32,000 nt of DNA from an uncultured Chloroflexia bacterium (GCA_963718915.1 CAVRAI010000004.1:420001-452000), one strand, 5' to 3'; positions 5,585 through 32,000 are shown, counted from the stretch's first letter. Made by a program: numbers and translations. Notes: generated by a model not told the origin, from the letters alone.

Positions 5585-5599
5585 CGGCAGGCGATAGTA

Positions 5600-6382: not shown

Positions 6383-6555
6383 AGCGCCTCTTTATTATCC
6401 CTCGTCATTCAGAGTGCTTTTGGAAATGCGGCCAGACACAGTATGGCACTGCGCGTCCAGCGCGTCTACGTGGGAGTCTCCAACGGGCGTGAGACATGCT
6501 ATACTGGCAGGGAGGCTCCTTTTAGGTCGTATGTTCGAGAGCGCGGGAGGCGTAT

Positions 6556-8022: not shown

Positions 8023-8032
8023 GAGCAGGCAG

Positions 8033-8620: not shown

Positions 8621-8655
8621 GGCTGCGCCAACGAACCGATGTGATGGAGCGCGCT

Positions 8656-9351
8656 ATGCCGACGGTTCAGGTCGACGACATCCAGATGTATTACGAGCTA
8701 CGCGGCGAAGGTCAGCCGTTAGTGTTGATCCTTGGCATGGCGATTGACGTATCCGAGGTCGAGCCGATCATCCGCTGGTTTGCCGAGAGATACCGCGTGC
8801 TGGCGTTCGATAATCGCGGCGCGGGCCGCACCGATAAACCTGATATCCCATATACCATCGAGATGATGGCGAACGACACTATTGGACTCATGGACGCGGT
8901 GGGCATCGAGCGCGCACACGTCCTCGGCATCTCACTGGGCGGGCGTATCGCGCTGGCGCTGACACTCGCGCATCCGGAGTGTGTCGAGAAGCTGGCGCTC
9001 GTCTCCACCTCCGCGCGAGTTCTCCCGCGAAGCTGGCGGTTCCACGCGCTCGGTCTCCTGTCCAGCGTGCCGATGTTTCAGGGTAAGTACCCACAGCCGC
9101 GCTATGCCTTCGTGCGCCAGCGTGACGCATCCACCCTGTTTAACTGCACCGCCAGGCTATCTGAAATACAGGCGCCCACGCTCATCATGCACGGAAGGAA
9201 CGACAGAACCGCGCCGTTCGCGCTGGCTGAGGAGATGCAGCGCGGCATACGCGGCTCGAAGCTGCTCCCCTTCGCGGGCGGCCATCTCTTCTTTCTGATG
9301 CGCGAGCGCCAGCGCTTCCTCGACGCCACCGCCGATTTTCTGGGACGCTGA
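8656..9351 (+). CDS. Alpha/beta hydrolase
   Basis: MPTVQVDDIQMYYELRGEGQPLVLILG, nucleophile elbow GISLGG. ATG 8656 has GGAG 6-7 nt upstream; alternatives are 8644 and 8578. Confidence 0.85.
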   Translation: MPTVQVDDIQMYYELRGEGQPLVLILGMAIDVSEVEPIIRWFAERYRVLAFDNRGAGRTDKPDIPYTIEMMANDTIGLMDAVGIERAHVLGISLGGRIALALTLAHPECVEKLALVSTSARVLPRSWRFHALGLLSSVPMFQGKYPQPRYAFVRQRDASTLFNCTARLSEIQAPTLIMHGRNDRTAPFALAEEMQRGIRGSKLLPFAGGHLFFLMRERQRFLDATADFLGR

Positions 9352-9371
9352 AACAACGGCCCTTTGTCCTG

Positions 9372-9644
9372 TTATCCCCGTGCCAAGGACGTCTTCCGAG
9401 AACGCACGAACAGCACGGCAAGGCATGCGATGAAGACCCAGATGAAGAAGAGCGGCGGCGCCACAAACACGCTCACGACGGACGGCGAGAAAAAGCCATC
9501 CTGGGCAAACGCTCCAGCGGCGACGAGGTGCGCCGGTGCGTTGATGGGTGGCAAGTCAGCGATGAACATGTCTCCCAGCGCGTACAGGATAACGCTTGTG
9601 ATGCCAGCAAGCGCGGTGAGTCGTCTCAGCGATACATCTGTCAT
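9372..9644 (-). CDS. Small hypothetical membrane protein (90 aa)
   Basis: AGAGG SD and 2-3 hydrophobic spans. Lies downstream of, and co-oriented with, the SnoaL-like gene. Confidence 0.45.
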   Translation of the reverse strand: MTDVSLRRLTALAGITSVILYALGDMFIADLPPINAPAHLVAAGAFAQDGFFSPSVVSVFVAPPLFFIWVFIACLAVLFVRSRKTSLARG

Positions 9645-9684
9645 GACGAACCTCTGGGTTGGAATATGCCGTCACTTCGGAGCG

Positions 9685-10131
9685 CTACGGTCGCCCCGGA
9701 AGCGGGATTATGCCTAACTGCAACATCATGGGGAGATCATCGCGCACTGCCCAGTGTTCGGCCAGTTTGCCACCCGCGACCCTGAACCAGTGTGTCTGCC
9801 ATCCGGCGAAATGTCTGCCAGTCGGCGGGATTGTACCGTTGAACGGGCCAAGATTTGTCCCCTCGGAGAAGACACGGCACGAGACCAGGTCTCCTTCGGC
9901 AATGGCCATTTCGACGCGCATCCGCATATCCGGAAACTGCGCGTGTAGCCACTCGGCGGCGCTCCGGGCGTGCTGTGGCCCCTGAACGCTACCCGGCTCC
10001 GACTGGCCAAACGGCGCGACGGCATGCTCGATATACTGCCCCTCCATGATCTCGTCGCACACCGCGTAGTTCTGCCTGGTGAGGATCTCTTCAAAGAATC
10101 GCTGAGCCAGGATCTTGTTCGCGTCAGACAT
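9685..10131 (-). CDS. SnoaL-like ester cyclase family protein
   Basis: ANKILAQRFFEEI...PPTGRHFAGWQTHWFRVAGGKLAEHWAVRDDLPMMLQLG is the typical ester-cyclase pattern; GGGGAG SD. Confidence 0.85.
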   Translation of the reverse strand: MSDANKILAQRFFEEILTRQNYAVCDEIMEGQYIEHAVAPFGQSEPGSVQGPQHARSAAEWLHAQFPDMRMRVEMAIAEGDLVSCRVFSEGTNLGPFNGTIPPTGRHFAGWQTHWFRVAGGKLAEHWAVRDDLPMMLQLGIIPLPGRP

Positions 10132-10204
10132 GACAATCTCCCCCGATGCTCACTATGGTGGGCATCGTGTGTGTTCTTGATATTTTTCCGGCCTGTAAAC
10201 CAAC

Positions 10205-11041
10205 TCACTCAACGTCAAGCTGGTGTTGAATCTCGGTGAGGTAGTCTGAAGGGTCACAGTGATGCATCGGCCCGCGATGATAAAGAAATCGCCACGTGCC
10301 GCTCAGGTGATAGCCGTTTTCTACCGCCCAGCGCTGGAGCAGCAGATATTTCTCGTTGAGCGTATCGTAGTCGCCCTGATGCATGTAGACTGCCGCCGTT
10401 TCGATGGCGGGCACTTCACGTAGGGTGAGGGTTCCAACATCACCGAGTGAGACGCTAGGAGTGTGTGTCGGGTCGACAGGCGCCGCCGTTTCGGTATCAA
10501 GATAGTCGCCACGAAACTCGTCCTCATAGAAGATGGAGACGGGCGCTCCGCCCGTCCAGCCGATATCGCCCCTCTTGACCGCCGACTCGATGCTGCGACC
10601 TACGACCTCACGCTCTTGCCGCGACCGAAATGTTCGTCGCAGCGTCAGCGCGGAGAATGGCTCGATACGTTTGACGACGATGTCTAATGTCGATGCGATA
10701 CCCTCCTGTTCAATCTGCCGCAGACGAAACTCCACCTGCGCCAACCGCGCCTGCTCCTCGCGTACCCGCTGGCGCAACTCAGCCTGCTTCAGCCGATACA
10801 TGCCCCGTATCTGATCTACTGTTAAATCTTCAGACAACAATTGGGCGATCTCATCCAGCGACAGACCTAATTCTTTCAGCGCGATAATCGTGTGCAGGCG
10901 TGGGAGCTGGTCGAGCGTGTAGTAGCGATAGTTGGTGAACGGGTCTGTCTGTGATGGTTTGAATAGCCCCACCTCGTCGTAGTGGTGCAGCGTTTTGACA
11001 GTTACCTGACTCAAACGCGAAAATTCGCCGACTTTGAGCAT
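10205..11041 (-). CDS. MerR family transcriptional regulator with GyrI-like effector-binding domain
   Basis: N-terminal MLKVGEFSRLSQVTVKTLHHYDEVGLFKP (MerR HTH), a coiled-coil linker, and a C-terminal GyrI-like half; GGGAGG SD. Confidence 0.9.
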   Translation of the reverse strand: MLKVGEFSRLSQVTVKTLHHYDEVGLFKPSQTDPFTNYRYYTLDQLPRLHTIIALKELGLSLDEIAQLLSEDLTVDQIRGMYRLKQAELRQRVREEQARLAQVEFRLRQIEQEGIASTLDIVVKRIEPFSALTLRRTFRSRQEREVVGRSIESAVKRGDIGWTGGAPVSIFYEDEFRGDYLDTETAAPVDPTHTPSVSLGDVGTLTLREVPAIETAAVYMHQGDYDTLNEKYLLLQRWAVENGYHLSGTWRFLYHRGPMHHCDPSDYLTEIQHQLDVE

Positions 11042-11086
11042 CGCTACCTCCCGTGACCATGTGTGGGGCCGCCTTCATGCATAAGT

Positions 11087-11114
11087 TTGCACCCTCCGGT
11101 TAGCGGAGGGTCAA
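11087..11114 (-). promoter_or_regulatory. Candidate MerR-type operator/promoter: TTGACC-N19-CAAACT with perfect 8-bp inverted repeat in the spacer
   Basis: ACCCTCCG (11091-11098) / CGGAGGGT (11104-11111). On the minus strand this reads TTGACCCTCCGCTAACCGGAGGGTGCAAACT, about 45 nt upstream of the merR ATG. The 19-nt spacer is the MerR-family signature. Confidence 0.45.
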
Positions 11115-11188
11115 GGGGGTATGCGGAGATTGGGTGAAAGTCGGGCAAAAGTCAGGTGACAGCGATGCCCAGCAAGGCGTAGCCCCGA

Positions 11189-12238
11189 CTATTTTGTCGT
11201 GTCGATGACGATTTTGCCGAAGACCTCGCGCTCTTCAAGCAGGCGTTGCGCCTCGGCAATCGATTCCAGCGGCAGCGTCCGGGCGATCACCGGGTGGAGC
11301 TGGCCATTCGCCACCAGTCGCAGTACCGTGGCGAGATCGGTGCGCGTGCCACCGTAGGAGCCAATCAGCTTCAGCTCTTTGGCAAAGAGCGTCCAGATGT
11401 TGGTCGTGCCCTCGTTGCCGGTCGTCGCGCCACAGGTGACCAGCCGCCCCTCGCGCGCGAGACACGTAATGCTCGCGGCCCAGGTTGCCGCGCCGATATG
11501 CTCCACGACCACCGAGACGCCGCGTTTGCTCGTCAGCTTGCGCACCTCCTGCGCGAAATCAAGCTCGTTGTAGTTGATGACATTGTCCGCGCCGAGTCGT
11601 TGCGCGTGCTCCATCTTCTCACGGCTACCCACCGTTGCGATGACTCGCGCTCCCGCCAGCTTCGCGATCTGAATCGCCGCGCTGCCCACGCCACTGCCAC
11701 CCGCCTGCACCAGCACAGTCTCGCCCGGCTGGACCTTTGCTCGCACGATGAGCATGCGCCAGGCGGTAATCATTGCCAGGCCCACCGCCGCGGCAGAGGC
11801 CGCGCTCACTCCGTCTGGCGCCGGGACGAGGCTCGACGCGGGCACAACGACGTATTCGGCGAACGCGCCCTGGCTCGCCAGCCCAAGGATGTCGCCGCGG
11901 ATGCACATCGTCTCCTCGCCCGCGAGGCAGAACTCACACTGCCCGCAGAAGAGATATGGCGCTATGGCGGCAAGACTGCCCACAGACACTGGCTCCGTCG
12001 CGACACCCGGCCCATAGGCCACGACCTCGCCCGCCGCCTCAGAGCCGGAGGTGTGGGGCAGCTTGACGGGCGTTCGGCCGGTGCGGGCGTAGATATCCAG
12101 CCGGTTGACGCCACATGCCAACACGCGCACCAGCGCCTGTCCGTTGCCGGGCTGCGGGCGCGGCAAATCGCCAAATCGCAGCACATCCGTGCCGCCGGTC
12201 TCTTCGAAGAAAACACCCTTCATGGTATCCGCTGTCAT
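11189..12238 (-). CDS. Zinc-type alcohol dehydrogenase / NADPH:quinone oxidoreductase (MDR superfamily)
   Basis: MKGVFFEETGGTDVLRFGDLPRPQP and the Rossmann motif VLVQAGGSGVGSAAIQIAK. Start is 12238 or 12223 rather than track start 12286. Confidence 0.9.
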   Translation of the reverse strand: MTADTMKGVFFEETGGTDVLRFGDLPRPQPGNGQALVRVLACGVNRLDIYARTGRTPVKLPHTSGSEAAGEVVAYGPGVATEPVSVGSLAAIAPYLFCGQCEFCLAGEETMCIRGDILGLASQGAFAEYVVVPASSLVPAPDGVSAASAAAVGLAMITAWRMLIVRAKVQPGETVLVQAGGSGVGSAAIQIAKLAGARVIATVGSREKMEHAQRLGADNVINYNELDFAQEVRKLTSKRGVSVVVEHIGAATWAASITCLAREGRLVTCGATTGNEGTTNIWTLFAKELKLIGSYGGTRTDLATVLRLVANGQLHPVIARTLPLESIAEAQRLLEEREVFGKIVIDTTK

Positions 12239-12475
12239 GTGGCAGGCATCCTTTTCCGCAACGCAAGATGTCGCGACTAGCCCCAACGTCGGTACCTCGC
12301 GGTCACTTGACCAGAGTATACCGCGCCTGATGTCGTCTCTATTATGGCAGTGTCGAGCAATGAACGAGAGTCAGCCGATTTGACGCGCCTGAATCGTGCG
12401 GCGATAATGGGCGAACGAGAGGTAGCCCGTCACACCATGCGTGCGGCGGGTGATGCAGTGAAGGGAGCGCAGCTC

Positions 12476-13211
12476 ATGATGCGACAATTGCGCGGAACCG
12501 GATGGCGCGGGATTCGATGGAGCGCCATGCTGGGACTTGCCATACTGATGACGATAGGTATTCTGGCGGGATGTAGCGGGCCATCCGCGCCGACCTCCAC
12601 CATATTGCTCGCGGCGGCGCAGAAGACCTTCAACGACGCCAAGACATTTCACTTCACGCTGAAGGCCGATCACCTTGGCCCCAAGCCAGCGGGTGATCCT
12701 GGTCTAAGCAGTCTCTCGGCAGCTGATGGGGATGTGCAGCGGCCTGACCGGCTCAGCACCAACGGTACGGTTGATTTGGGCGGGCTTACCGTCTCCACGC
12801 AGTTGGTGATTATTGGCGATAAGGCATGGTATCAAAACCCATTGACAGGCTCGTTCGATGAGGATGACTCGTATGCCAGTTTCGTGACACTTTTTGACCC
12901 GACGAAGGGGCTGGGAGTGGCTCTGGCCGCGTTACGCAATCCCTCGACGCCCAGCGACGGCAGCGCCAATGGCACGCCCTGCTGGAAGATCAGCGGTGAC
13001 GTGGATACCGCCGCTTTGAGCGCGCTCCTTGGGGAGTGCCGCGGGATCCGCCAAGGCGCCTCACGCTACCGTCTGTATCGGCAAGAGCGACAACAAGCTT
13101 TATTCCATCGTGCTCGTCGGCCAGGTGATCGCGGGCGACACCGACCAGACAACGCGCACCATCTATATCTCGAAGTATGATGCGCCCGTAAATATTCAGC
13201 CGCCAGCCTAG
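12476..13211 (+). pseudogene. LprG/LppX (LppX_LprAFG)-like lipoprotein, frameshifted at a G4 run (13031-13034)
   Basis: AAGGGAG SD before ATG 12476; lipobox GILAG/C. Frame A runs to ...DTAALSALLG, then degenerates into an Arg-rich tail. Frame B (track ORF 13029..13211) gives SAAGSAKAPHATVCIGKSDNKLYSIVLVGQ...TIYISKYDAPVNIQPPA, the family-typical C-terminus. Frame B is closed upstream by TGA 13017-13019, so the shift lies within 13020-13040. Confidence 0.75.
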
Positions 13212-13252
13212 GCGAGCGAAACTGCGGCGTGTGGGCGAGAGGAGCAGCGCGA

Positions 13253-14947
13253 GTGGCGAAAGTAGTCGGAGAAAGCGGCGTAGCGAGTGTGGATGATCCG
13301 CTCAAGCAGCGTGACGGAACACTTTCGACGCTTGGCTATCTGGCGCTGGGTGTTGTCTGCGTCGCGGTATTTCTGACGGCGCTCGATCAGACGGTAGTGG
13401 TGACCGCCCTTGACGCAATGCGCTTAGATGTCGGAGTACCGATTACACAACCTGACCGCATTGCATGGATCGTCAGCGGCTACCTGCTGGGCTACGTGAT
13501 CGCCATGCCATTGATGGGCCGCATCAGCGACATCTTTGGGCGTCGGCGTGTCTTCATGATCTGCCTGGTGATCTTCGGCCTGGGTTCACTGACTTGTGCG
13601 CTCGCGCCACAGCTCGGCAGTTCGATTGCGCCAGACACCACCACACTCGGCGGCGCGCTTTTGACGCCGCTCTACAACGCGGTGCAGGCGATAGTCACTC
13701 CCTTGGGGCAATTGGGGATAGACACGTCAGCGCCGGGCCTCGACATTCTGGTGGCGGCACGCTTTATCCAGGCGATTGGTGGCGGCGCGCTCGTCCCGGT
13801 GGCGATGTCGGTGGCGAGCGATCTCTTTGGCGGTACCCGACGCGGGCTGGCGCTGGGACTGATTGGCGCGGTGACGGAGGCTGGTGGCGTGGTTGGCCCA
13901 GTCTGGGGTGGCTGGGTCACGTCCACCTTGGGCTGGACGTGGATTTTCTGGCTCAATCTGCCGCTGGTGGCGCTCTTGCTGGGCATTGGCGCGTTTTGCC
14001 TGCCGAGGGCGCGCGGCGCGCGTGAGCCGATAGATATTCTTGGCGCACTGATATTTGGCGCATCGCTGATATGTCTAACCCTGGGACTCGGACAGCAAAG
14101 CGGTGGCACGGGTATACTCGATCCCAGGGCGCATAGTACATTTAATCCGCTGTTTCTAGGCGCCGCGGCAGTGCTCTTTGTCACCTTCGTCGTTTTGGAG
14201 TTAACCATTCGCTGGCCAATCGTAGACCTGCGGCTCTTCAAGCGCGTCGCGTTTAGCGCTGCGGCGCTGCTCAGTCTGATAATCGGCGCGGCTTTAATTC
14301 TTGCGCTGGTCGAGATCCCGCTATTCCTGGCATCTCTGCAAAATACGACGGCAATTGCCGCTGGGCTGGCGCTGCTACGGTTGACGGCGCTCGTGCCGGT
14401 GGGCGCGTTCGCGGGCGGGTGGCTCTCTGGCCGCATCAGCTGCCCGCTAACTGCCGCGATTGGGACGATGCTGACGGCGGCGGGTCTCTACCAGATGAGC
14501 CTCTGGCCGATCAACGTGGGTGAGCTTCAGGTGACGGCGGCGACGGTGACGGCGGGCCTCGGTTTCGGACTGGTGATCGCGCCGATCAGCACGAGCGCTC
14601 TTAACGCCAGTCCGGCGAGCCAGGCAGGTGTCGCATCGTCGGTAGTGACGGCGTTACGCATGACTGGGATGACCGTAGGCCTGGCTGCGATGGTTGCCTG
14701 GGGATTGGGTCATCTGCGGGCGTTACTGGCCCATCAGCCGTTGCCAGGGACGCCTGGTGGCCCAACCATCAGCGCCTACCTGACAAGCGTCACCCATGCG
14801 CTGCACCAGGTGTATAGTGACATGTTCCTGGTGACGGCTGTGCTTGCGCTCATCGGTGTGATCCCCGCGCTGCTGCTCTGGCGGCGTGGTAAAGGCGCGG
14901 CGGACAATGCGCCTGTCTACGAAAGCTATGTCGCCCCGCTGGGGTGA
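13253..14947 (+). CDS. MFS transporter, DHA2 (EmrB/QacA, 14-TMS) family
   Basis: ALDQTVVVTALDAM, GRISDIFGRRRVF, about 14 hydrophobic spans. GTG 13253 has GAGAGGAG 9 nt upstream (alternative 13229). It sits 41 nt after the lipoprotein gene. Confidence 0.85.
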   Translation: MAKVVGESGVASVDDPLKQRDGTLSTLGYLALGVVCVAVFLTALDQTVVVTALDAMRLDVGVPITQPDRIAWIVSGYLLGYVIAMPLMGRISDIFGRRRVFMICLVIFGLGSLTCALAPQLGSSIAPDTTTLGGALLTPLYNAVQAIVTPLGQLGIDTSAPGLDILVAARFIQAIGGGALVPVAMSVASDLFGGTRRGLALGLIGAVTEAGGVVGPVWGGWVTSTLGWTWIFWLNLPLVALLLGIGAFCLPRARGAREPIDILGALIFGASLICLTLGLGQQSGGTGILDPRAHSTFNPLFLGAAAVLFVTFVVLELTIRWPIVDLRLFKRVAFSAAALLSLIIGAALILALVEIPLFLASLQNTTAIAAGLALLRLTALVPVGAFAGGWLSGRISCPLTAAIGTMLTAAGLYQMSLWPINVGELQVTAATVTAGLGFGLVIAPISTSALNASPASQAGVASSVVTALRMTGMTVGLAAMVAWGLGHLRALLAHQPLPGTPGGPTISAYLTSVTHALHQVYSDMFLVTAVLALIGVIPALLLWRRGKGAADNAPVYESYVAPLG

Positions 14948-15861
14948 ATGCGCGAACCACTTACCCCACGAATTGCGGCATTGGAGGGACACCACTCATA
15001 GTCGGGAAGTTCTGCGCCGTGCGTACTTGTAGGTCGTGTGGTGTCACGTAGTACCAGCGGCCAGCGGCCATCGGCGCCTGGCACGCGCCACATTGGGTCA
15101 ATTGTGAGATCGCCGCCCTCCGTCCAGGCGTCCGCATTGCCAGTAATCGTGGCGAGATGGTCGGAGCTGTAGAAATAGACCAGTTCCGGCGACCTGCCCC
15201 CCATAAGCGAGATGTGGCGCGTCTGCCACACCAGTGAAGTGGCCTGTGTTGCGCTGAGGTATGGGAAGTGGTGAGACGTGTAGAACATATTGTTGCTCAC
15301 AGCCCCGAACGATCCCGCGCGCAGCCGGTGGTTGGGGCGGTCGTAGACGAATTCCAGCATGGCTGTTGGATATCCCACAGGGCCGACGACGGGAATAACC
15401 CATACGGTCGCCATAAGCGTCCCACTGGTATACGGTGTAACAAGAACTGGCTGACCGATTGCTCCTGTACCCAATGCTATCCCGATAGGGTCGTTGCTGT
15501 GCCTGGCGCTTTGGAACATCGCCGTACACTCAGCGGCGGCAAGCACATCGGCAGGCGATGCCGAAGGCAGCGGCGCCCATTCAATCGCTGGGCTAACGCA
15601 CACTGGCTGTCTGGAAGTCGCGCTCGTGGAAATTGTGGCATTCGCAGTGGCCCGAGCCGTAGAAAATACCGCTGGACTGGCGGCGCTGCTATGGGCTGCT
15701 GGGGTGGTCGCGTCTGAGGCGCCAACTGCCAGCCGGATCCCCATGAAGGCGATCCCCGATATCCCCAAAAGCAACAGGCAACCTATAATCACCGCGCGGC
15801 GCATATCTGTATTCCGTTCTCGCTTCATCTGTTGTCTACCAGTGTGATGAAGCGATGACAT
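14926..15861 (-). CDS. Hypothetical membrane-anchored/secreted protein
   Basis: 311-aa ORF with the N-terminal anchor MRRAVIIGCLLLLGISGIAFMG. The start is ambiguous (15861, 15828 or 15804). It overlaps the convergent MFS 3' end by 22 bp. Confidence 0.5.
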   Translation of the reverse strand: MSSLHHTGRQQMKRERNTDMRRAVIIGCLLLLGISGIAFMGIRLAVGASDATTPAAHSSAASPAVFSTARATANATISTSATSRQPVCVSPAIEWAPLPSASPADVLAAAECTAMFQSARHSNDPIGIALGTGAIGQPVLVTPYTSGTLMATVWVIPVVGPVGYPTAMLEFVYDRPNHRLRAGSFGAVSNNMFYTSHHFPYLSATQATSLVWQTRHISLMGGRSPELVYFYSSDHLATITGNADAWTEGGDLTIDPMWRVPGADGRWPLVLRDTTRPTSTHGAELPDYEWCPSNAAIRGVSGSRIHPSGAT

Positions 15862-15879
15862 GCGGGTGTTTTCGGTCAG

Positions 15880-16446
15880 TTACCATGAACCCTTGCGAAG
15901 CGCGGGAGCGCTCACCTCATAGCGGTACTCGTCGCTGACGGACCCCTTGAAGAAATCCGCGCCATGAGTTGTGGCAACGAGCGTAAAACCGAGTGCCTCG
16001 ACAAGCTGGATTGAGGCGGTATTGCGCGTATCTATCTCGGCGGCGACACGGCTCACGTGATAATCCTCGAACAGGTGGGCGAGCACGCGCGTGCAACTCT
16101 CCAGCGCATAGCCCTGTCGCCAGAATGGCACGAAGACCATGTAGGCGAGTAAAGCGGTGTGGTTCGCAAGCACGGTCGCCTGAATCGTGCCAACGTAGTC
16201 GCCCGTCGCGTGTTGGCGGAGCGCCCAGTTCAACCAGTCTTCCTGCCCGTCGGGCGAGCGACGGCTGGCGAGAGCCGAGAAGCGCGTTGTGAGCGCTTCC
16301 AGCGAGGATGGTGGATCCTGGGGAATGTAGGTGTACAGGTCGGGAGCCTGGTGCGCCTCGAATAGCGCCGTAGCATGGCCGACGACGAGCGGCTCCAGGA
16401 GCAGCCGTGGCGTCTCAAGTGTGCGTTCTGGGTCTATTCGCGGCAT
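15880..16446 (-). CDS. GNAT family N-acetyltransferase (RimJ/RimL-like), likely the real independent gene
   Basis: The internal ATG 16446 gives 188 aa: MPRIDPERTLETPRLLLEPL...WRQGYALESCTRVLAHLF...NTASIQLVEALGF. This is canonical in size and motifs for this family. Confidence 0.6.
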   Translation of the reverse strand: MPRIDPERTLETPRLLLEPLVVGHATALFEAHQAPDLYTYIPQDPPSSLEALTTRFSALASRRSPDGQEDWLNWALRQHATGDYVGTIQATVLANHTALLAYMVFVPFWRQGYALESCTRVLAHLFEDYHVSRVAAEIDTRNTASIQLVEALGFTLVATTHGADFFKGSVSDEYRYEVSAPALRKGSW

Positions 16447-17319
16447 AGTACCATTCTCGTCTCGAAGAGAGGCTGCGCATACGCAGCCATCCGCGCTGAG
16501 AATAGACAGTGAAGCCCGCTGAAGGATATCGCCAGCGGGCTTTGTGGCTGTGAATCCTTTTGACGTCAGGACACGCTGGCCGCGTAGATGCGTGACGTGG
16601 GTAAAGAGCGCCTCACCACTCGACGAGGTCGTCAGCGCGATCGTTGGGCTGGAGCTAATGTCCGCGCTTGCTTGATCCACGAACTGCCCGTTTGCGTAGA
16701 AGGCGACGGTATCCTGATCGGCGTTATAGAGTACCGCGATCTCATTGGGCACGAAGGCGTCGGCATGCCACGCGACCGTTGACCCGGAAGCCACCAGACC
16801 AGAGGGCTGGAAGTCACCTGCGGTAAATGAGGAATCACACGTGTCATGGCAAATCTGGTAATCACCCTGCTGCGTGATGATGACAAGCAACGAGTTGTCC
16901 AGCAGAATCCCGGCATCCTCCGAGGTTGGCACATCTGCCGCGGGCGCGAGCTGCGCATCGATAAGTACGCCGCCATCAAGCGTGGCGTCATTCCTCGGTT
17001 GGAACTTGCAGCTAGAGTCGCTCTCAATCGCCAGACCTTCCGAAGGGAAGTCACAGCCGACCGCGTTGTCCCAGGCGCCCGTCGTGTCGCCGGGATTCGC
17101 GCTATAGACCTGCTGCCAGCCCACGGGGACTTGCAGCTTCGGCGCGCTCGTGAGTTGCGGCGCAAAGACCGCAAGAGCTATAGCGGCGAGAGTCAGCACC
17201 GATGCGACGATGCCAAAAAAGAGGCCGAATCGCGACGGATGAACTGGTTGAGCAGGCGGCGCGGAATCAGGGACGGTTGGTGGCATTGCCGTTGGTGTGG
17301 TCATGGGTGGCGTCATCAT
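15880..17319 (-). CDS. 479-aa ORF: membrane-anchored LamG/DUF1080-like ectodomain reading in-frame into a complete GNAT acetyltransferase
   Basis: The N-terminal Pro-rich tail and TM FGLFFGIVASVLTLAAIALAVF are followed by a beta-rich domain ending GEALFTHVTHL. A roughly 45-aa low-quality linker spans two strong hairpins, then the GNAT module follows. The start overlaps the prsW-like stop (ATGA at 17316-17319). Confidence 0.6.
   Translation of the reverse strand: MMTPPMTTPTAMPPTVPDSAPPAQPVHPSRFGLFFGIVASVLTLAAIALAVFAPQLTSAPKLQVPVGWQQVYSANPGDTTGAWDNAVGCDFPSEGLAIESDSSCKFQPRNDATLDGGVLIDAQLAPAADVPTSEDAGILLDNSLLVIITQQGDYQICHDTCDSSFTAGDFQPSGLVASGSTVAWHADAFVPNEIAVLYNADQDTVAFYANGQFVDQASADISSSPTIALTTSSSGEALFTHVTHLRGQRVLTSKGFTATKPAGDILQRASLSILSADGCVCAASLRDENGTMPRIDPERTLETPRLLLEPLVVGHATALFEAHQAPDLYTYIPQDPPSSLEALTTRFSALASRRSPDGQEDWLNWALRQHATGDYVGTIQATVLANHTALLAYMVFVPFWRQGYALESCTRVLAHLFEDYHVSRVAAEIDTRNTASIQLVEALGFTLVATTHGADFFKGSVSDEYRYEVSAPALRKGSW
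16471..16542 (-). terminator. Two GC-rich hairpins inside the linker of the 479-aa ORF (intergenic-like)
   Basis: AAGCCCGCTG (16512-16521) / CAGCGGGCTT (16533-16542) form a 10-bp perfect stem. GGCTGCG (16471-16477) / CGCAGCC (16482-16488) form a 7-bp stem. There is no clean U-tract. Confidence 0.35.
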
Positions 17320-24345: not shown

Positions 24346-27232
24346 CTACTCCAAAACATCGAGATTGCAGCCCAGTTGCGCCGCCCGCTGGCGCACCCGC
24401 GTCGCCGCAGCGTCCTGCCCCAATCGCGTGTACATCTCCACCGCCTGGGCGAGCAACTGGCAGCCCTCATCTGTCTTGCGCTGATGTCGCAGCAGGAACG
24501 TCCCAAGCCTTCTTGTATTGGCGCTGAAAGCGGTGCCAGTTGCAGACGCAAGGCAATCGCCAGCGACTGACGATAGCTATGCTCCGCCGCATCGAGGTCG
24601 CCCTCCGCCTCCTGCACAGTAGCCAGATTGAACCAGGCCACGCCTTCGTCGCGCTGGTCATGCACCGCCTGCATGATGGCGAGGTAGCGGGTGTAGTTGG
24701 TCTTGGCGGTCGCCAGATCGCCCTCTTGCCGCGCCAGGTCGCCGAGCAGGGAGAGGGCCACGCCTTCGCCGCGCTGGTCATGCACCGCCTGCATGATGGC
24801 GAGGAAGCGGGTGTAGTTGGCCTTGGCGGTCGCCAGATCGCCTTCCTGCATCGCCAGGTCGCCGAGCAGGGAGAGGGCCACGCCTTCCCGCGCTGGTCAT
24901 GGACTTCACGAAATTCATCGACGCTGGCTGCCGCCATCGCCTTCGCACTCAGGAATCTGGCCAAGTTGCTGTAACAGCGTCGCGTAATGGCCATGCAAGA
25001 TTGCCGCATCCCTGACCGTCGCATCGTTGCGTTCAGCGGCAACCCGGCGCTCAGCCGCAGCCACCGCCGCCGGGAGATATTCTTCGCGCGCCGCTGTCCG
25101 GCTATGAGTCGTTCCAGTAGTTGGCGCTGCCCTGGCAGAGGCGGATCAGCAGCGTGTCGTTGCTGGCGGCGAGCGCCCAGGCAAGCGCGCCAAGGATGTT
25201 GCGCTCGTCGTTTCCAAAGCGGCGTCGCTTCGTGTCATTGCTATAGTCCGCGTACCACTGCGCCACCGCCTGGGAGAGCGCCGCGCGGTCATCGCTGGCG
25301 ATTTGGCTGAAGCGGTCGCGGGCGTCGGTGTAGACGAGCGGGTGCAGCCTGACGCGCTCGCGGTCGCTCTGCTCTGGCATCGCCTCGTCGAGGCCGGGAT
25401 CGGCCAGCCGCAGGGTAATCAGCGCCTTCAGGCTGCGCTCCGCTATCGCCTCATCCGCCGCATCATCCTCCGTCTCATCGTCGCTGGCGACCAGCGCGCC
25501 GATGGAGAGCGCGGCCTCGCGTCCCACATCGCCGGTGGCGAAGGCGCCGAGCGCCACGAAGAGCCGCTGGGCGGGCGCATCGAGCGCGGCGAAGCTCGAA
25601 TCGAGGACGTAGCGCACCGCCTCCGCGCCATCTTCCAGCAGCAGCGCCTTAGTGGGGTTCGCCTCCAGTTCCGCCGCCAGCCGATCCAGCGGCCGACCCA
25701 GGCTGGCCGCGTTGGCCGCCTGGAGCTTCACCGCCAGCGTGTGGCGGCCTAGCAGGGTCACGATGGTTGTCACATCGCGCAGTTCGGCGGCGGTCAGGTC
25801 GAGCGCCGCGCCGCGCCCGTAATACGACGCGAAGAGGTCGAGCGCCTCGGGCAGCGGCAGCACGTCCAGTTTCACACGCGCCTCCCGTGGGATTTCGGGC
25901 AACTCCGCGCGCGAGGTCAACAGCAGCGCCACCCCCGCCGCGCGCAGCGCCTGCGCCACCTCGCCGACATGCGGCCCCGGCTCCATATTGTCCAGCACGA
26001 CCAGCGCCCGCTTCTCGCCGAGTATCTGGCGCGCCCGGTCGCCAAGCGCCGCCAGGTCGGTGTCCTCCGGCTCGCTCCGTCCCGTGGTGAAGCGGGCGAG
26101 AATCTGCCTAAGCAGCCGTACGGGATCATGCTCATCCCTGGCGACCACCACCGCGATGCCATCGGGGAAGGCGTTGGCCACCATCAGGCGGCGAATCACC
26201 TCGGTGGCGAGCGCCGTCTTGCCGATGCCCGCCAGCCCATTGGTCGAGGCGATGCCCGCGATGCCGCCACCGTTCGCGCCAGTGAGCAGCGCCACCACCC
26301 GGTTCGCGTCCTCCTCACGCCCGATAAAGCGCTCGATGCCGGGCAGCGCCCCGATGTCGAACGGCGGCCCCACCTCCACTGGCGGCGCGGGGATCGTGCT
26401 GCCATGGCGGAGGGCCACGAGCAGCGTCGCGAAGGCGGCCTCGTCGGCAACCTCCAGCCGATAGTCCACATACTGCGCCAGCGTCACCAGCGGCGGTACC
26501 GCGCAGGTCTGGCGCAGCACTGGCACGACAATCTTGCCGTCTTTGACATTGGCGCTATTCTTCTGGCTCCACGCCAGCCCGATCTCATCATGCACCCACT
26601 TCGAGGCGGCGGATTGCGAGGTCAGGATGACGAGAAAGATTTCGCGCGTGGTCAGCTCGCGGACAATGTCATCTTGCCAGTAAGTGGCTAGGCGCGATGC
26701 CACCCTCCCAGGTTCCCTCGGCGCCGGGGCCGCCCCGCGAGTCATACCAGGCGTCGAAGCCCGCAGCGCGCAGGCGCTCAAGCAGCGCCTCGCCAAAGGC
26801 GTTGTCGCCGTTGCTGTGGCTGATGAAGACGCGCCGCCGGTCGCTGCCTGGGACGGGCGCGGACACGGAGGCTGGCGCGGGCGCGACCGACGACGGCGCG
26901 GTGGAGACAGTAGACGGGGCGGCAGGGGTTACAGCGGAGGCTAGCGGTTTGGGTCGCAGTAGAGAAGGCGAAGCGCGCAACGCCAGGACGAAGACGCCGC
27001 ACATCAACACGAAGAGCAGCGCGTCGGCGGGTGGCGCTGGCGGCAGACCAGGCAGCGCAATCGCATGGAGGACGGCGGAGAGCGGCGACGGTGGATTGGT
27101 CGTATCTGGCGCCGCGCCGCGCACGTTCCAGACGAGCAGAGCGATATAGCCGAGCAGAACCAGCCACGTGAGGCCAAAGGCAAGCCAGGATGTGAACCGC
27201 ACCCAAAATGACGAATGATTGCCCGTTTTCAT
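24346..27232 (-). pseudogene. 2xTM - TIR - NB-ARC (STAND NTPase) - TPR protein gene with at least 5 frame disruptions
   Basis: ATG 27232 (GGGAGG 6 nt upstream). TM1 WLAFGLTWLVLLGYIALLVW and TM2 ALLFVLMCGVFVLAL. TIR: RRVFISHSNGDNAFGEALLERL...SKWVHDEIGLAW. NB-ARC: Walker A GLAGIGKTALA, Walker B ALVVLDNME, LLLTSR, GRHTLAVKL. TPRs run to a reconstructed C-terminus ...AVEMYTRLGQDAAATRVRQRAAQLGCNLDVLE with stop at 24346-24348. Frame changes are needed near 26690-26740, 25100-25112, 24947, 24887 and 24500-24505. Confidence 0.8.
24637..24899 (-). repeat. Near-identical 120-bp tandem units encoding TPR pairs
   Basis: Unit A (24661-24780) versus unit B (24781-24899) shows about 6 substitutions and 1 missing base (ccttcGccgcg versus ccttcccgcg at about 24887). 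They encode EGVALSLLGDLA(R/M)QEGDLATAK(T/A)NYTR(Y/F)LAIMQAVHDQRG. Confidence 0.85.
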
Positions 27233-27427
27233 GGCGCCTCCCAACGTGGTTGTATAAACGACTTGCGCAAAGTATGGCAGATTTCGTCACTGCCCGCAAG
27301 GCATCAGTTTCCTGTGAACGATCAGCGCGCCAGCAGAAAGGACTGGACAGGCCCAGTAAAATGGAGAAGCAATCTATCGCAGGAGATGATGTGTATTCTG
27401 GCAAGCGGATAGGATAGGGTCAATCGG

Positions 27428-27595
27428 ATGGATCAGGTGAATGTGGCCACTAGCACAGGTCTCATGTCGCCGCAGCCGCCCTCGCCCGCGCCGCCGCAGC
27501 CTGCCTATATGCTGCTTACGCCCGCCGGAGCAACCGACGCCGAGGCTGTCGAGACGGAACTCACTAAGTTGCTCTTCATGCCGAAAAAGAAGTAA
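27428..27595 (+). CDS. Candidate small ORF (55 aa; or 43 aa from ATG 27464)
   Basis: Below the ORF-track cut-off. MDQVNVATSTGLMSPQPPSPAPPQPAYMLLTPAGATDAEAVETELTKLLFMPKKK. The 3' two-thirds has strongly G/C-biased third positions. AGGA/AGGG lie 8-13 nt before ATG 27428. No homology recognised. Confidence 0.25.
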   Translation: MDQVNVATSTGLMSPQPPSPAPPQPAYMLLTPAGATDAEAVETELTKLLFMPKKK

Positions 27596-28848
27596 CAGGT
27601 AGCACTTGGGGGCTGATGCGTCCGACAACCATTGCAGCCAGCACCTCATCTGCGTCGACTTGCTCAGTGGGGGTGAGCGCACCTAGCGGGACGCAGGCCA
27701 TCGCAGCGAGTTTGCCCGGTTCCAGCGTGCCTAACTCATCCGCCAGGCCAAGCGCGTCGGCTCCTCCGAGTGTTGCCAGTCGTAGTAGCTCGGTAGGTGT
27801 CGGCGTCTCGCCAGCCGCGCTATGTAGCTCATGCGACGCGATAGCGTCGTCCCAGACCGCGAGGGAGGGACTACTCGCCAGGCTATCGGTGCCGAGCGCC
27901 AGCCGGACGCCCGCCGCGCGATACAACTCATAGGGTATGCGCCCGCAGTGCAGCCGTGAGTTACTGCGCGGGCAATGCGCCACCGCCGCATTCGCATGGA
28001 GAATGCGTGCCACATCATCCGTGTCCACCTGGATGCCGTGGGCCAGCAGCGGACGCGCCGCCAACACGCCTAACTGGTCGAGATACGCGATAGGAGAGAC
28101 GCATGGCGCGCGCATTGGATGGATCGGCCAGCCAGCGCCGGGATAGAGCAGGTCGGCAATCGGGCCAGTGGCGTCGCGCAGGAACTGGGTCTCGGCGGGC
28201 GACTCGGCGGCGTGGATGGTGAGCGGGACATCCTCGGCGTGACACCACTCGGCTGTGGCTCGCAGTAGTTCGGCGGAGACGGTATACGGCGTATGCGGCG
28301 CGAGGCCGAAGCGGATGCGGTCCTGTGGATACTCGCGGCGCCACTGTTCGATCTGCCGCTGGCCCGCGCGCAAAAGGTCGTCCGCCCGCTGCCGGGTCGG
28401 GGCTGAGCAACTCGAAGTAGACAACGCCGTGGAGGCCGCTCTCGACCAGCGGACGCACGCTCTGGCCGAACGTGCATATCTCGCCGACCGCCACCGTGCC
28501 ACTGGCGACCATCATTTCGACGCCCGCATAGGCAGCCCGCTCGAAATCGTCCGACGTGCGCGTTCGGCTGTAGCTCACCAGCGGATAGATCCACTCGATC
28601 AGCGGCAGGTTATCGGGAACGTGCCCGGCGTGGTGGGTTAGCTCCAGATGTGTGTGGGCGTTGACCAGCCCCGGCAGCAGCGCCCGCTCGCCCAGGTTCA
28701 CCACCCGCGCGCCGGGATAGCGCTCGCGCAGGTATGCGGCCGTCCCCACAGCGACGATGCGCCCAGCCTCGGCGGCGACCGCGCCATCGGGAATCGGCTC
28801 CGCGCTCACCGGGAAGACGTGGCGGGCAGTGTAAAGGGTGATGGTCAT
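27576..28848 (-). pseudogene. Amidohydrolase, ATZ/TRZ-MtaD (nucleoside/nucleobase deaminase-like) family, one frameshift near 28392-28402
   Basis: ATG 28848 (GGAAGG upstream). PGLVNAHTHLELT, IHAAESPAETQFL, HCPRSNSRL, LGTDSLASS. Frame 1 ends meaningfully at ...VVYFELLSPDP; frame 2 continues RQRADDLLRAGQRQIEQWRREYPQDRIRFGLAPHTPYTV. The shift sits in a GGG/GGGG-run region. Confidence 0.8.
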
Positions 28849-29009
28849 GTGGTCGTAACTACCTTCCGTTCGGCGATGTAGCTGCCTGGTGATTGTACCA
28901 TTGTCTGTCTCCACCACAGCTGCCTGTTCCCCACGCCGATAGGCAAATCATCAGGCAAATATACGCTCCTGGGTACACATCAACTCGGCGAGATATACGC
29001 CAACATGTC

Positions 29010-29038
29010 TATACAAGCGGATGGTTATCCTGTATGAT
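29010..29038 (+). promoter_or_regulatory. Promoter-like TATACA-N17-TATGAT, conserved with 31463-31491
   Basis: TCTATACAAG at 29008-29017 and TATGAT at 29033-29038 (preceded by TG). The same decamer and the same spacing occur upstream of the paralogous TIR gene. Confidence 0.45.
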
Positions 29039-29100
29039 AGCAGCAAGCCTGCCATACTGTGTGGAATCACGATTTCACTGTGCTGAGGGATTTTCACGAT

Positions 29101-30789
29101 ATGTCGTTCAAGACCGCGTTCATGAGCCATGCTCATGTCGACAATGCCACATGCGACCCGTATGCGAAGGCGCTACGCGAACGAGGCGTTCACCTCTACT
29201 ATGATCGCGAAGAACCGATGGAATTGGACGGCAGACTCCTCAGCGAGGTTCTGGTGAGAGAGCTGAGGCAAGCCCAAACCCTTATCCTGATGGCTACTCC
29301 AGCGGCTGTAGCGTCTCAATGGGTGATCGAGGAGTATAACTTCTTCCACACGCTCATGATGCGCGACGCCACGCGACAGATTATCCCAGTGATGATCGAG
29401 CAGTGTGAACTCCCTGGCTTCTTGCCGTCGCGGGGACGGATCGACGCGACCTCGCTGTCTCCAGATGAATTAATTGATCGGTTGATAAAAGCGCTGACGG
29501 TGAAGGACGCGCCAGACGACGCCACAACTCCTCCATATGTACCACGGCCCGCGCCAATTACGCCCACGCTGGAGTCACCGCTTAGTTCAGGCACAAATCC
29601 ATCTCCAGCGCCACAGCCTGGAACTCCGCCATCGGCTAAGCCACAACCCACGCCAAAATCGCGCCCATCGCCTCAACGCGCTCCGAAGTCTTCCACTCCT
29701 CCGCTCAAACGCAGGCGTAGAATCGCGCGGCGTGTGTTCTTGACAGTGGGTACAACTGGTATCCTCGCGGCCACTGCTGGTGCGTTCTTCTGGCTTCACA
29801 ACGATCCATCGGCGTTGCCACCATTCTTTACGCAGCCGACCGCGACGCCGCAACCGACGGCCACGCCGCAGCCGACCGCGACGCCGCAGCCAACCGCGAC
29901 GCCGACCGCGATTAGCGCATACCATGGACATTCTGCCGCAGTCAATAGCGTCTCATGGTCACCTGATGGACGATTCATCGCTTCGGCCAGTGACGATCAC
30001 ACGGTACAGGTATGGGATGCGACAACAGGCGTCAAACAGAACACCTTTTTGGGTAGCCCTGGCGCGGTATTGACGGTGGCGTGGTCACGTGATGGGTCTC
30101 TCATCGCAGCGGCGGGCGATGATGATTTTGTAGAGGTGTGGCAGGCAGGCAGTAATATCTTTGCCCCTTTGCTTATCTATCGTGGTCACACGAGTGCGGT
30201 GAACTCGGTTGCCTGGGCGCCACACGGGGCGCGTATCGCCTCGGCAAGCAGTGACAAGATTGTGGAGGTGTGGGACGCGGTGACAGGCTCGCGCATCTGC
30301 ACCTGTATCGGACACGCGAACGCGGTGAACGGCGTGGCCTGGTCGCCTGACGGAACACGCATTGCCTCGGCCAGCGCCGACAAATCGGCGCAGGTGTGGG
30401 ATGCGTCAAGGGGAAGCCATGTCTATACCTATCATGGTCACACGGACTGGGTGAATGCGGTGGTCTGGTCACCGGACAGGACGCGCATTGCCTCGGCGAG
30501 CAATGATAAAACCGCGCAGGTGTGGGATGCGACGACGGGAGCCAACCCCTACGTCTACCGTGGACACCTGGATTATGTGCTTTCGGTCGCCTGGTCGCCC
30601 GACGGTCGGCGCATTGCCTCGGCCAGCTATGACACGACGGTGCAGGTATGGGATGCGTCTGATGGCGCCCACGTCTATACCTACAATGGACACTCAGCGC
30701 CAGTGAATTACGTTGCCTGGTCGCCCGATGGGACACGCATTGCCTCGGCCAGCGCTGACAATACCGTACGGATATGGAGTCCCCAATAG
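29101..30789 (+). CDS. TIR domain - Pro-rich linker - Tat-like signal-anchor/TM - (PTATPQ)4 - 7-bladed WD40 propeller protein
   Basis: I prefer ATG 29101 (GAGGGA 10 nt upstream; aligns with paralog start M..KTAFMSHAH) over track start 29059. TIR: KTAFMSHAHVDN...LILMATPAAVASQWVIEEYNFF. KRRRRIARRVFLTVGTTGILAATAGAFFWL follows, then seven GH...WSPDG.RIASAS.D...VWDA repeats. Confidence 0.9.
   Translation: MSFKTAFMSHAHVDNATCDPYAKALRERGVHLYYDREEPMELDGRLLSEVLVRELRQAQTLILMATPAAVASQWVIEEYNFFHTLMMRDATRQIIPVMIEQCELPGFLPSRGRIDATSLSPDELIDRLIKALTVKDAPDDATTPPYVPRPAPITPTLESPLSSGTNPSPAPQPGTPPSAKPQPTPKSRPSPQRAPKSSTPPLKRRRRIARRVFLTVGTTGILAATAGAFFWLHNDPSALPPFFTQPTATPQPTATPQPTATPQPTATPTAISAYHGHSAAVNSVSWSPDGRFIASASDDHTVQVWDATTGVKQNTFLGSPGAVLTVAWSRDGSLIAAAGDDDFVEVWQAGSNIFAPLLIYRGHTSAVNSVAWAPHGARIASASSDKIVEVWDAVTGSRICTCIGHANAVNGVAWSPDGTRIASASADKSAQVWDASRGSHVYTYHGHTDWVNAVVWSPDRTRIASASNDKTAQVWDATTGANPYVYRGHLDYVLSVAWSPDGRRIASASYDTTVQVWDASDGAHVYTYNGHSAPVNYVAWSPDGTRIASASADNTVRIWSPQ
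29833..29910 (+). repeat. 18-bp tandem repeat x4.3 encoding (QPTATP)n
   Basis: cagccgaccgcgacgccg / caaccgacggccacgccg / cagccgaccgcgacgccg / cagccaaccgcgacgccg / accgcg. Confidence 0.85.
30232..30786 (+). repeat. 126-bp phased WD40-coding repeats with conserved nucleotide core
   Basis: CGCATTGCCTCGGC recurs at 30358, 30484, 30610 and 30736 (exact 126-bp phase). A diverged copy lies at about 30232. Confidence 0.8.
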
Positions 30790-30901
30790 AGGCTAGGGAC
30801 CCTTCTCTACCACGTACTACTCAAACACTTCGAGAATCCCGTAGCGGGCGTTGCGGACGGCGGGACGAATGTTAGCCGACTCGAATGACACCAATGCTGA
30901 T

Positions 30902-31357
30902 TCATTGGTACCGCTCTGAGAGCGTGAGTCCGGGCCGTTCGTCATCCCAGGCCATCGAGCTGATTTTCCAGCCGGTGGGCGTCGCGATGAACTGTATTAC
31001 GATCACGCCACGACCCTCGATCGTCGTCCCCGCACTGAGGCCATGTTTCTCATATATGCTAAAGCGGTGGGCAACGTTGCCAAATATTTCTGTGATCTCC
31101 GCCGTTTCAGATTCTCGCAAGCTTTTGAGTTCGCCCGACTCAACCATGCGTTGGCGTGGCTCGATGAACTGGCGGACGGTATAGATCTCTGGCGAGGACG
31201 AACTGTTCTTGATGATCTGTCCGCTCTCGATAAAGATGTCGTACAGATTTACGTACGGTGGAGTCTCACCGTCATCGAACGAGACGGCCCGGTAGAACGC
31301 AGCCGTCAGGGTATCTATCTCGGCCTTACTGCCTGATTCGTCGTCGTCAATTTTCAT
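30902..31357 (-). CDS. Hypothetical protein, NTF2/SnoaL-like fold (inferred)
   Basis: ATG 31357 with AAGGGA 7 nt upstream. The track start 31522 would run through the promoter block of the neighbouring gene. EIDTLTAAFYRAVSF...GRGVIVIQFIATPTGWKISSMAWDDE resembles the DUF4440/NTF2-like pattern. Confidence 0.6.
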   Translation of the reverse strand: MKIDDDESGSKAEIDTLTAAFYRAVSFDDGETPPYVNLYDIFIESGQIIKNSSSSPEIYTVRQFIEPRQRMVESGELKSLRESETAEITEIFGNVAHRFSIYEKHGLSAGTTIEGRGVIVIQFIATPTGWKISSMAWDDERPGLTLSERYQ

Positions 31358-31462
31358 ATAACATCCCTTACCTGCCAGCACCAGCCTCGTCGAAGCTGTC
31401 AGTCTGTCTTGTGAAGGCCTCGCCGTTGCGCACCTAAATGCCCAAAGTCGCTCCGTTGCATC

Positions 31463-31491
31463 TATACAAGTAGCAGCATCTCCTATATGAT
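31463..31491 (+). promoter_or_regulatory. Promoter-like TATACA-N17-TATGAT (paralogous to 29010-29038)
   Basis: TCTATACAAG at 31461-31470 and TATGAT at 31486-31491, about 65 nt upstream of ATG 31556. Confidence 0.45.
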
Positions 31492-31555
31492 TACAACACG
31501 GAACCATTGTTCGCCAGATCAAGATGCGCTATCAAGCCGCTGAGGATGTAACGCA

Positions 31556-32000
31556 ATGCTGTATAAAACTGCGTTCATGAGCCATGCACATGCTGATAAC
31601 GCCAAGTGCGATCCCTATGCGGATGTTTTGCAGAAACGTGGCATCAGCCTTTATTATGACCGCGCTAATCCACAGGTTGGCCGTGACCTCGGCATAACGC
31701 TGGAGCGTGAAATCCAGCAGGCCAACGCTTTGATCGTGATGGTGACTCCTTCAGCGCTCAAATCTTTTTGGGTAACTGAAGAAATCAGCATGTTCTTCTC
31801 ACTCATGGCACAGGATCCGTCGCGATTGCTGATCCCGGTGAAGCTGGAGCCTTGCCAATTGCCGCCCCGCCTTGCTGCCCGATGGTGGATTGATGCGACA
31901 ACTCTGCCAATGCCGCAGGTGGTGGATCAATTGGCCAAAGCGCTCGAAGTGGCAGGCCCACCGTTCGTTTCATCGCCTGCACCGTCGCCTTCTGTGCGCC
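31556..32000 (+). CDS. TIR-domain protein, paralog of 29101..30789 (3' end beyond window)
   Basis: Open-ended and not in the ORF track. GAGGA lies 9 nt upstream. MLYKTAFMSHAHADNAKCDPYADVLQKRGISLYYDR...LIVMVTPSALKSFWVTEEISMFF...VAGPPFVSSPAPSPSVR is roughly 45% identical by eye to the other TIR module and enters a Pro-rich linker at the edge. Confidence 0.85.
   Translation, partial: MLYKTAFMSHAHADNAKCDPYADVLQKRGISLYYDRANPQVGRDLGITLEREIQQANALIVMVTPSALKSFWVTEEISMFFSLMAQDPSRLLIPVKLEPCQLPPRLAARWWIDATTLPMPQVVDQLAKALEVAGPPFVSSPAPSPSVR

Follow-up and report, generated by a model that had tools for sequence, protein, structure and literature searches.

Three accessory TIR-domain genes among housekeeping genes beside dnaE in an uncultured Ktedonobacterales bacterium

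TIR domains and sensor modules at the locus

We analysed a 32,000-nucleotide stretch of DNA (the window; CAVRAI010000004.1:420001-452000, assembly GCA_963718915.1) from an uncultured Chloroflexia bacterium, in which a sequence-only reading had picked out three genes for TIR domains, a common immune output module of plants, animals and bacteria, as a candidate conflict or defence island. Pfam TIR_2 profile matches bear out three TIR genes within 7.7 kb (24348-32000), and dnaE lies beside the cluster as that reading had it, starting at 23780. Gene A (24348-27232, minus strand; delimited by Pfam, frame path and reconstruction) encodes a STAND/NLR-like protein in which two predicted membrane helices are followed by TIR, NB-ARC and TPR modules. 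Gene B (29101-30789, plus strand) is intact and encodes 562 amino acids, running from a TIR domain through a proline-rich linker, a transmembrane-like (TM-like) segment and a Thr/Pro linker to a seven-repeat WD40 domain. Gene C (31556-32000, plus strand; Pfam TIR_2) comprises an N-terminal TIR domain and the start of a linker, and is then cut by the window end. Relatives were found through a dnaE-based scan with one genome per species, which returned 80 Ktedonobacteria loci with dnaE synteny at 57-96% identity. Loci L001, L004, L003 and L005 match the N-terminus of the window's DnaE at 96%, 94%, 93% and 91% amino-acid identity, respectively, and several of the closest dnaE relatives are MFD-series metagenome-assembled genomes (MAGs). 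Placed by these dnaE loci, the window derives from an uncultured soil member of the Ktedonobacterales (Chloroflexota).

The TIR assignments survive profile searches. Genes B (54.8 bits) and C (70 bits) both exceed the curated TIR_2 cut-off of 28 bits; in gene A the match is divided over two open reading frames (ORFs; 25.2 and 40.9 bits, profile positions 1-35 and 38-122), and the assignment stands by way of this split match and the intact L001 orthologue, which scores 71.4 bits in one piece. The translations contain SKWVHDE in gene A, SQWVIEE in gene B and SFWVTEE in gene C, so the S-x-W-V-x-(E/D)-E signature that had been claimed for all three is indeed present. The catalytic glutamate, which all three genes keep in W-V-x-x-E, aligns with that of W-T-N-Y-E in BtTIR (7uxr), AbTIR (7uwg, 8g83) and PdTIR (3h16), and it forms the sole invariant column over 80 members of the family to which the TIR domains of genes B and C belong (the B/C family). 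The fold was modelled for gene B among the three genes. Its AlphaFold model (pLDDT 82.5) has 51 matches in the PDB at E ≤ 0.001, all 50 listed being TIR domains or TIR-containing proteins, and it superposes on the active AbTIR filament 7uxu with a TM-score of 0.79 and a root-mean-square deviation of 2.5; further matches include SPARTA and SARM1. We read genes A, B and C as encoding predicted NAD-cleaving TIR proteins.

Gene A opens with a predicted N-terminal hairpin of two TM-like helices (residues 16-34 and 69-87; 26972-27187, minus strand; Kyte-Doolittle hydropathy 2.17 and 2.13), a pair conserved in the homologues P0007 and P0008. It continues on the same strand with the TIR domain carrying SKWVHDE (26440-26842), an NB-ARC (AP-ATPase) module (25801-26313; 42.3 bits against a Pfam cut-off of 23.5) and a TPR region, presumed to be the sensor (24348-25100), which matches Pfam TPR_12 and holds a tandem repeat of a 120-bp unit (2.2 copies, 94% identity; 24636-24901). 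This repeat points to recent duplication within the array. The TM-TIR-NB-ARC-TPR architecture proposed earlier on the minus strand is thereby upheld, but not as a single ORF: as assembled, the gene is split into ORFs at 26669-27244, 25102-26796, 24467-25042 and 24240-24881, and five frame corrections (near 26689, 25105, 24945, 24890 and 24500), placed from the frame path and the L001 alignment, are required to give a 961-amino-acid protein ending near 24348. The break near 26689 is a 1-bp insertion in the TIR domain, an extra base relative to L001, whose orthologue runs in one frame through TM-TIR-NB-ARC; the other four fall within the TPR region or at its edge. The TM-TIR part has few close homologues, with five matches of which two are the window's own proteins, recorded on a contig of 1,051,705 bp.

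The WD40 domain of gene B scores 250 bits over its seven repeats (Pfam). The TM-like segment ahead of it (residues 212-230; 29734-29790, plus strand; hydropathy 1.69) is flanked by seven K/R residues on its N-terminal side and none on its C-terminal side, a charge bias from which the TIR domain is predicted to be cytoplasmic and the WD40 domain extracellular. Immediately upstream, KRRRRIARRVFL forms a twin-arginine-like RRxFL motif, and motif and segment together span 29716-29790; IARRVFL is followed by the mildly hydrophobic TVGTTGILAATAGAFF, as in motifs of the twin-arginine translocation (Tat) type. The motif is internal, near residue 205 and past the TIR domain and linker, rather than at the N-terminus as in a Tat signal. 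Related motifs precede the TM segment in members of the B/C family with TM and WD40 parts (TRRAFL in P0047, SRRTFV in P0049, ARRSAL in P0083 and SRRAVV in P0100), and a similar one occurs in P0080, which was not flagged as WD40; the motif is absent from an FKBP member and from two members with unknown tails. It hints at Tat-dependent export of the WD40 domain through an internal signal-anchor, and we treat it as a lead only. Past the TM-like segment, the predicted extracytoplasmic linker of gene B is an 18-bp repeat in 4.1 copies that encodes TATPQP (29831-29920).

Taken further, these features would make the gene B family transmembrane TIR receptors, in which a WD40 domain exported by the Tat pathway through the internal RRxFL motif, possibly already folded, senses the outside while a cytoplasmic TIR domain acts as NADase. 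We consider this quite unlikely. Were it true, the ligand could be, for example, a phage particle, another cell nearby or a piece of cell wall, and gene B would present a bacterial analogue of Toll-like receptor topology; with gene A also tethered to the membrane, TIR-based surveillance in this lineage would be stationed at the cell envelope.

All three TIR proteins had been proposed to be membrane-associated, and this is supported for gene A, with two TM-like helices, and gene B, with one, but not for gene C, in whose 148 residues inside the window the hydropathy scan found no TM segment. The TIR domain of gene C is paralogous to that of gene B (about 52-53% identity). Because its homologues differ in their tails, which comprise a C-terminal TM segment (P0002), FGE-sulfatase (P0001, in locus L081) and WD40 (P0005, in L001), the full architecture of gene C cannot be read from them. 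At the locus of its closest homologue, P0001 (71% identity; L081 10001-11315), a TIR gene is followed by two FGE-sulfatase fragments in other frames; the three pieces probably make up a single TIR-FGE-sulfatase gene broken by frameshifts, the source being another MAG with apparent indel errors.

The B/C family as a whole is built with swappable C-terminal modules. A search of 1.84 billion representative proteins with the B/C TIR profile recovered 62 clusters at E ≤ 1e-30 and 971 at E ≤ 1e-10. Among the best 80 matches, TIR_2 is present in all and N-terminal in 72; ten carry WD40 tails, eight FGE-sulfatase and at least one FKBP, the others being unknown, and 27 of the 80 have a TM-like segment downstream of the TIR domain. 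The TIR-TM-WD40 arrangement recurs in at least six clusters, and the FGE-sulfatase forms have no TM segment. A homologue search with gene B residues 1-250 gave no match at E ≤ 1e-8, and a metagenome scan for the family gave seven loci, six of them short. One metagenome contig (Ga0078972_1000099, locus L084) has three TIR genes of the same family within 6.5 kb (9974-16440), namely TIR-FGE-sulfatase (671 amino acids), TIR-unknown (605) and TIR-FGE-sulfatase (475), and this cluster directly adjoins the genes for PbeA (609 bits) and PbeC, which belong to the Pbe defence system, and a TnpB gene.

A high background density of TIR genes was considered as the cause of the cluster and rejected. With a profile built from both TIR types, matches were confined to the window, L001 and L081, the last of which had been chosen for its TIR gene; the other Ktedonobacterales loci, about 1.1 Mb drawn mainly from around dnaE rather than sampled at random from genomes, yielded no TIR domain. 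The cluster is real and non-random, and is not explained by background density.

Backbone genes, insertion sites and inheritance

The genes that the sequence-only reading had listed between the TIR genes are not their partners, as comparison with relatives shows. In L001, L004 and L005 the order is variant radical SAM gene, MqnC gene, 151-amino-acid-protein gene, amidohydrolase, M48 peptidase (on the opposite strand) and dnaE, so that the far side of the block in relatives is formed by the menaquinone gene MqnC (TIGR03699; 449 bits against a cut-off of 428) and the radical SAM gene. The amidohydrolase (27576-28848, minus strand; TRZ/ATZ-type, Pfam Amidohydro_1) is nearest to the aminofutalosine deaminase and TRZ/ATZ families, although all its NCBIfam matches stay under cut-offs; it is split by a 1-bp insertion near 28389 and is intact in L004, L005 and L001. 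The 151-amino-acid protein (30902-31357, minus strand), which matches no family, is 88-89% identical to its L001 and L004 orthologues, with a ratio of non-synonymous to synonymous substitution rates (dN/dS) of 0.15-0.19. It had been described as NTF2-like, a label left unsupported by the lack of any Pfam match even at E ≤ 5 and of any NCBIfam match; its structure model (pLDDT 41) is too poor to judge such a fold. The possible small ORF of the earlier reading (55 amino acids; 27428-27595, plus strand) is not a separate gene. Its sequence aligns with the beginning and with approximately the final 40 residues of the proteins of L001, L004 and L005 (439-454 amino acids) that match Pfam Peptidase_M48, and on this alignment it is an M48 peptidase gene that has lost about 1.2 kb by an in-frame internal deletion, leaving fused N- and C-termini. 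Because the amidohydrolase, the 151-amino-acid protein and the M48 gene are present and conserved in genomes without TIR genes, we assign them to the conserved MqnC-side backbone and not to a TIR system.

Set against this backbone, the TIR genes occupy three consecutive intergenic sites. The window segments 27329-27447 and 24175-24299, which bracket gene A, match sequences that have only 35 bp between them in L004 and 67 bp in L003. Gene A is thus an insert of about 3.0 kb, whose site is occupied in the window and L001 but vacant in L003, L004 and L005. Hardly any sequence separates the 151-amino-acid gene from the amidohydrolase in L004; in the window about 2.0 kb lies between them and carries gene B on the opposite strand. 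At the gene B site, L001 carries a TIR-WD40 gene, disturbed by frameshifts in that assembly, whose TIR domain is 65% identical to that of gene C and 52% to that of gene B, and whose WD40 part is only 30-37% identical to that of gene B at the amino-acid level, against 79-92% for the backbone. Gene C appears to sit at what in relatives is the junction of MqnC and the 151-amino-acid gene, the MqnC side lying past the window end. The synteny comparison that had been called for thus finds the block variable among close relatives, with the gene A and gene B sites empty in some of them.

The interval between the amidohydrolase and the M48 gene is itself variable in several lineages: in L001 (4320-4910) it holds a gene for a DUF6932 protein with a weak PADLOC match to PDC-M63A, and in L004 (6339-7824) two ORFs (155 and 276 amino acids) with no family match.

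The insertion of gene A is not recent. Across the 365 codons compared between the window and L001, which span the NB-ARC module and the TIR domain's C-terminal part, gene A has dS 0.41 and dN/dS 0.24, against dS 0.40 and dN/dS 0.14 for dnaE, 0.39 and 0.19 for the 151-amino-acid gene and 0.58 and 0.23 for the amidohydrolase. Given a dS like that of dnaE and a dN/dS of 0.24, gene A was in place in the ancestor of the window and L001 and has since been inherited vertically and kept under purifying selection. Nor does the block resemble a mobile island, a reading we rejected: there is no integrase among the ORFs scanned in the window, no tRNA or other match in tRNA and Rfam scans of the window, and no target-site duplication evident at the borders of gene A. 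The earlier suggestion that this is a variable spot of the chromosome and not a mobile island describes the locus fairly. Such genes have gathered here by the insertion of single genes among housekeeping genes, with long retention and with variation from species to species.

Could the three TIR genes nevertheless form one cooperating system, either a Thoeris-like pair of signal and reader or one in which the amidohydrolase or the 151-amino-acid protein serves as accessory or effector? Their closeness within 7.7 kb, the retention of two of the three at the same sites in L001 and the similar trio in L084 would fit such a system. In L004 and L005, however, where the TIR genes are missing, the interspersed genes stand side by side and evolve under purifying selection; the three genes lie on both strands as separate intergenic insertions and not as an operon; no reader domain of the ThsA, SLOG, SAVED or Macro type was found by Pfam or PADLOC in the neighbouring ORFs; and homologues of genes A and C occur singly, in unrelated contexts. 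There is no sign of the three TIR genes acting jointly, and we regard cooperation as very improbable; a Thoeris-like system was rejected on the presence of the interspersed backbone genes in relatives without TIR genes.

Frame breaks in gene A and neighbouring genes

The state of gene A raises the question of whether the locus is decaying, so that gene A would be a pseudogene, the M48 gene deleted and the amidohydrolase broken, and the cluster in part a graveyard of accessory genes. Gene A has five frame breaks in 2.9 kb, more per kilobase than its neighbours, of which the 1.3-kb amidohydrolase and, its intein left aside, dnaE have one each; there are none in gene B or in ORFs of 600 and 479 amino acids, and the M48 gene is internally deleted. 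Yet dnaE, which we assume to be essential, is frameshifted as well. Relative to L004 and L005, dnaE in the window (19329-23780, minus strand; from ORFs and synteny, with an intein-like insert) has a 1-bp insertion near 23207 and several indels at 21116-21263 in the variable intein part; the gene is a single ORF of 1,556 amino acids in L005 and lies in several frame-broken pieces in L001. The 1-bp insertion of dnaE is absent from L004 and L005, and that of the amidohydrolase is absent from these two and from L001. With the essentiality of dnaE assumed, its frameshift argues for assembly error, and the broken L001 dnaE together with the MFD-series MAGs among the closest relatives suggests that such assemblies are error-prone. 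The four gene A breaks at or in the TPR region are plausibly assembly-related too, because a tandem repeat with 94% identity is hard to assemble and polish. The dN/dS of gene A speaks for long-term constraint, and gene B is intact. We find it unlikely that the locus is decaying.

Two further features of dnaE were noted. The intein-like insert is a block that starts with Cys after GYGFNK and ends in VSHN, followed by Ser and the rest of dnaE; some relatives align straight over this region, apparently without an insert. The dnaE 5′ region also contains, at 23860-24151, an insert of some 290 bp whose ends form nested inverted repeats, one of 33 nt with 88% complementarity and one of 24 nt with 100%. 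The corresponding region spans 98 bp in L004 against 365 bp in the window, and the 24-nt arm occurs in 0 of the 82 loci compared, so that the insert appears to be window-specific; it may be an element resembling a miniature inverted-repeat transposable element or a structured leader.

Function and comparison with known systems

A conflict or defence island in the usual sense, as the sequence-only reading had proposed, is not what the window holds. PADLOC returned weak TIR and TPR matches only, also for the full-length reconstruction of gene A, with no Thoeris, Avs or other known defence system among the window ORFs and nothing among the neighbours. The remaining 19 kb is metabolic and housekeeping in content: window positions 1-19000 encode MFS transporters, a methyltransferase, MgsA, a hydrolase, a MerR protein, an alcohol dehydrogenase and a lipoprotein. 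Of the marks by which defence islands are recognized, known systems among the neighbours are missing and variable content among relatives is present.

What we consider on balance probable is that genes A, B and C are three separately inserted, lineage-variable and self-contained TIR sensor-effector genes at three consecutive intergenic sites of the backbone. Their accessory status with swappable sensors, together with the Pbe neighbour of the L084 cluster, points toward conflict genes. Several observations weigh against this account as a whole. No curated model of a defence family is reached by any of the three proteins; with housekeeping genes on its flanks, the window itself offers no guilt by association, which is drawn from the single unrelated contig L084; and the retention of the genes since the split of the window and L001 fits a stable cellular role equally well as defence. 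In addition, the TM calls come from a simple hydropathy scan, in which gene B scores 1.69, its topology being read from charge bias alone, and gene A is untranslatable as assembled and may be a recent pseudogene.

Part of the same evidence would suit a non-immune role, in which the proteins are signalling or developmental regulators of a filamentous spore-former, the WD40 and TPR modules sensing cues and the TIR domain metabolizing NAD or acting as a scaffold. Vertical inheritance of gene A with the backbone under purifying selection, the housekeeping neighbourhood and the absence of any match to a known defence model agree with this, as does the STAND-TPR part of gene A, whose nearest whole-length likeness in NCBIfam is to AfsR- and HaaT-type regulators, far under the cut-offs. 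Against it, species of a single clade differ in whether they carry the TIR genes, the gene B site has diverged far more than the backbone between the window and L001, and swappable sensor modules with one cluster beside a Pbe system are the usual marks of conflict genes. We hold a non-immune role to be unlikely.

For self-contained sensor-effectors we propose the following mechanism, because of what is known of TIR NADases and STAND proteins and of the architectures described in PMC7159879 and PMC11350192. In gene A, the two-helix hairpin would tether an NLR-like STAND protein to the membrane, where binding of a ligand by the TPR array would trigger nucleotide-dependent oligomerization through NB-ARC and bring the TIR domains together. 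In gene B, the WD40 propeller would bind its ligand, possibly outside the cell, and the cytoplasmic TIR domains would cluster. The clustered TIR domains, with their conserved glutamate, would then cleave NAD+, and either NAD+ depletion or signals derived from ADP-ribose would stop the growth of the affected cell or kill it. This could serve phage defence or some other form of conflict or cell death in a filamentous bacterium.

Known bacterial systems offer close parallels to parts of these proteins. AP-ATPases with N-terminal TIR domains and C-terminal TPRs have been described in multicellular prokaryotes (Kaur et al. 2020, PMC7159879), and single-protein antiphage systems of the TIR-TPR-ATPase kind have been reported, the E. 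coli TIR-II system combining TIR and TPR, sometimes with an ATPase (PMC11350192). Gene A resembles these bacterial TIR-STAND, Avs-type and AP-ATPase proteins in its order of TIR effector, STAND NTPase and TPR repeats, an architecture it shares with Avs. It differs from TIR-STAND proteins in the conserved two-helix membrane hairpin ahead of the TIR domain, in the small number of close TM-TIR homologues and in being frameshifted in the assembly, and from Avs in that PADLOC matched generic TPR and TIR models only and no Avs model. The TIR domains weakly match ThsB models of Thoeris (E between 1e-5 and 4e-8), but by PADLOC and Pfam no ThsA-type effector (SIR2, Macro, SLOG or TM) lies nearby. For the B/C TIR profile, the best PDB sequence matches are AbTIR, which is deposited as an NAD(+) hydrolase, BtTIR and PdTIR, all with the glutamate aligned; identity to these is about 15-23%, and the B/C proteins differ from them in being fused by long proline-rich linkers to TM, WD40 or other modules.

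In a limited literature search, we found no description of a TIR-STAND protein with a membrane hairpin or of the TIR-TM-WD40 layout; both are unusual variants of known bacterial sensors. The characterized bacterial TIR systems met in that search are largely cytoplasmic, and membrane features like those of Toll-like receptors seem absent from the E. coli TIR systems studied (PMC11350192). Gene B resembles Toll-like receptors in its predicted outer repeat sensor, single membrane pass and inner TIR domain, and differs from them in its inverted order, with the TIR domain N-terminal, in having WD40 rather than leucine-rich repeats and in keeping the NADase-type glutamate. If the predicted topologies hold, genes A and B would represent two membrane-linked TIR variants that extend the known couplings of TIR domains to sensing and provide a bacterial counterpart to receptor-type TIR signalling.

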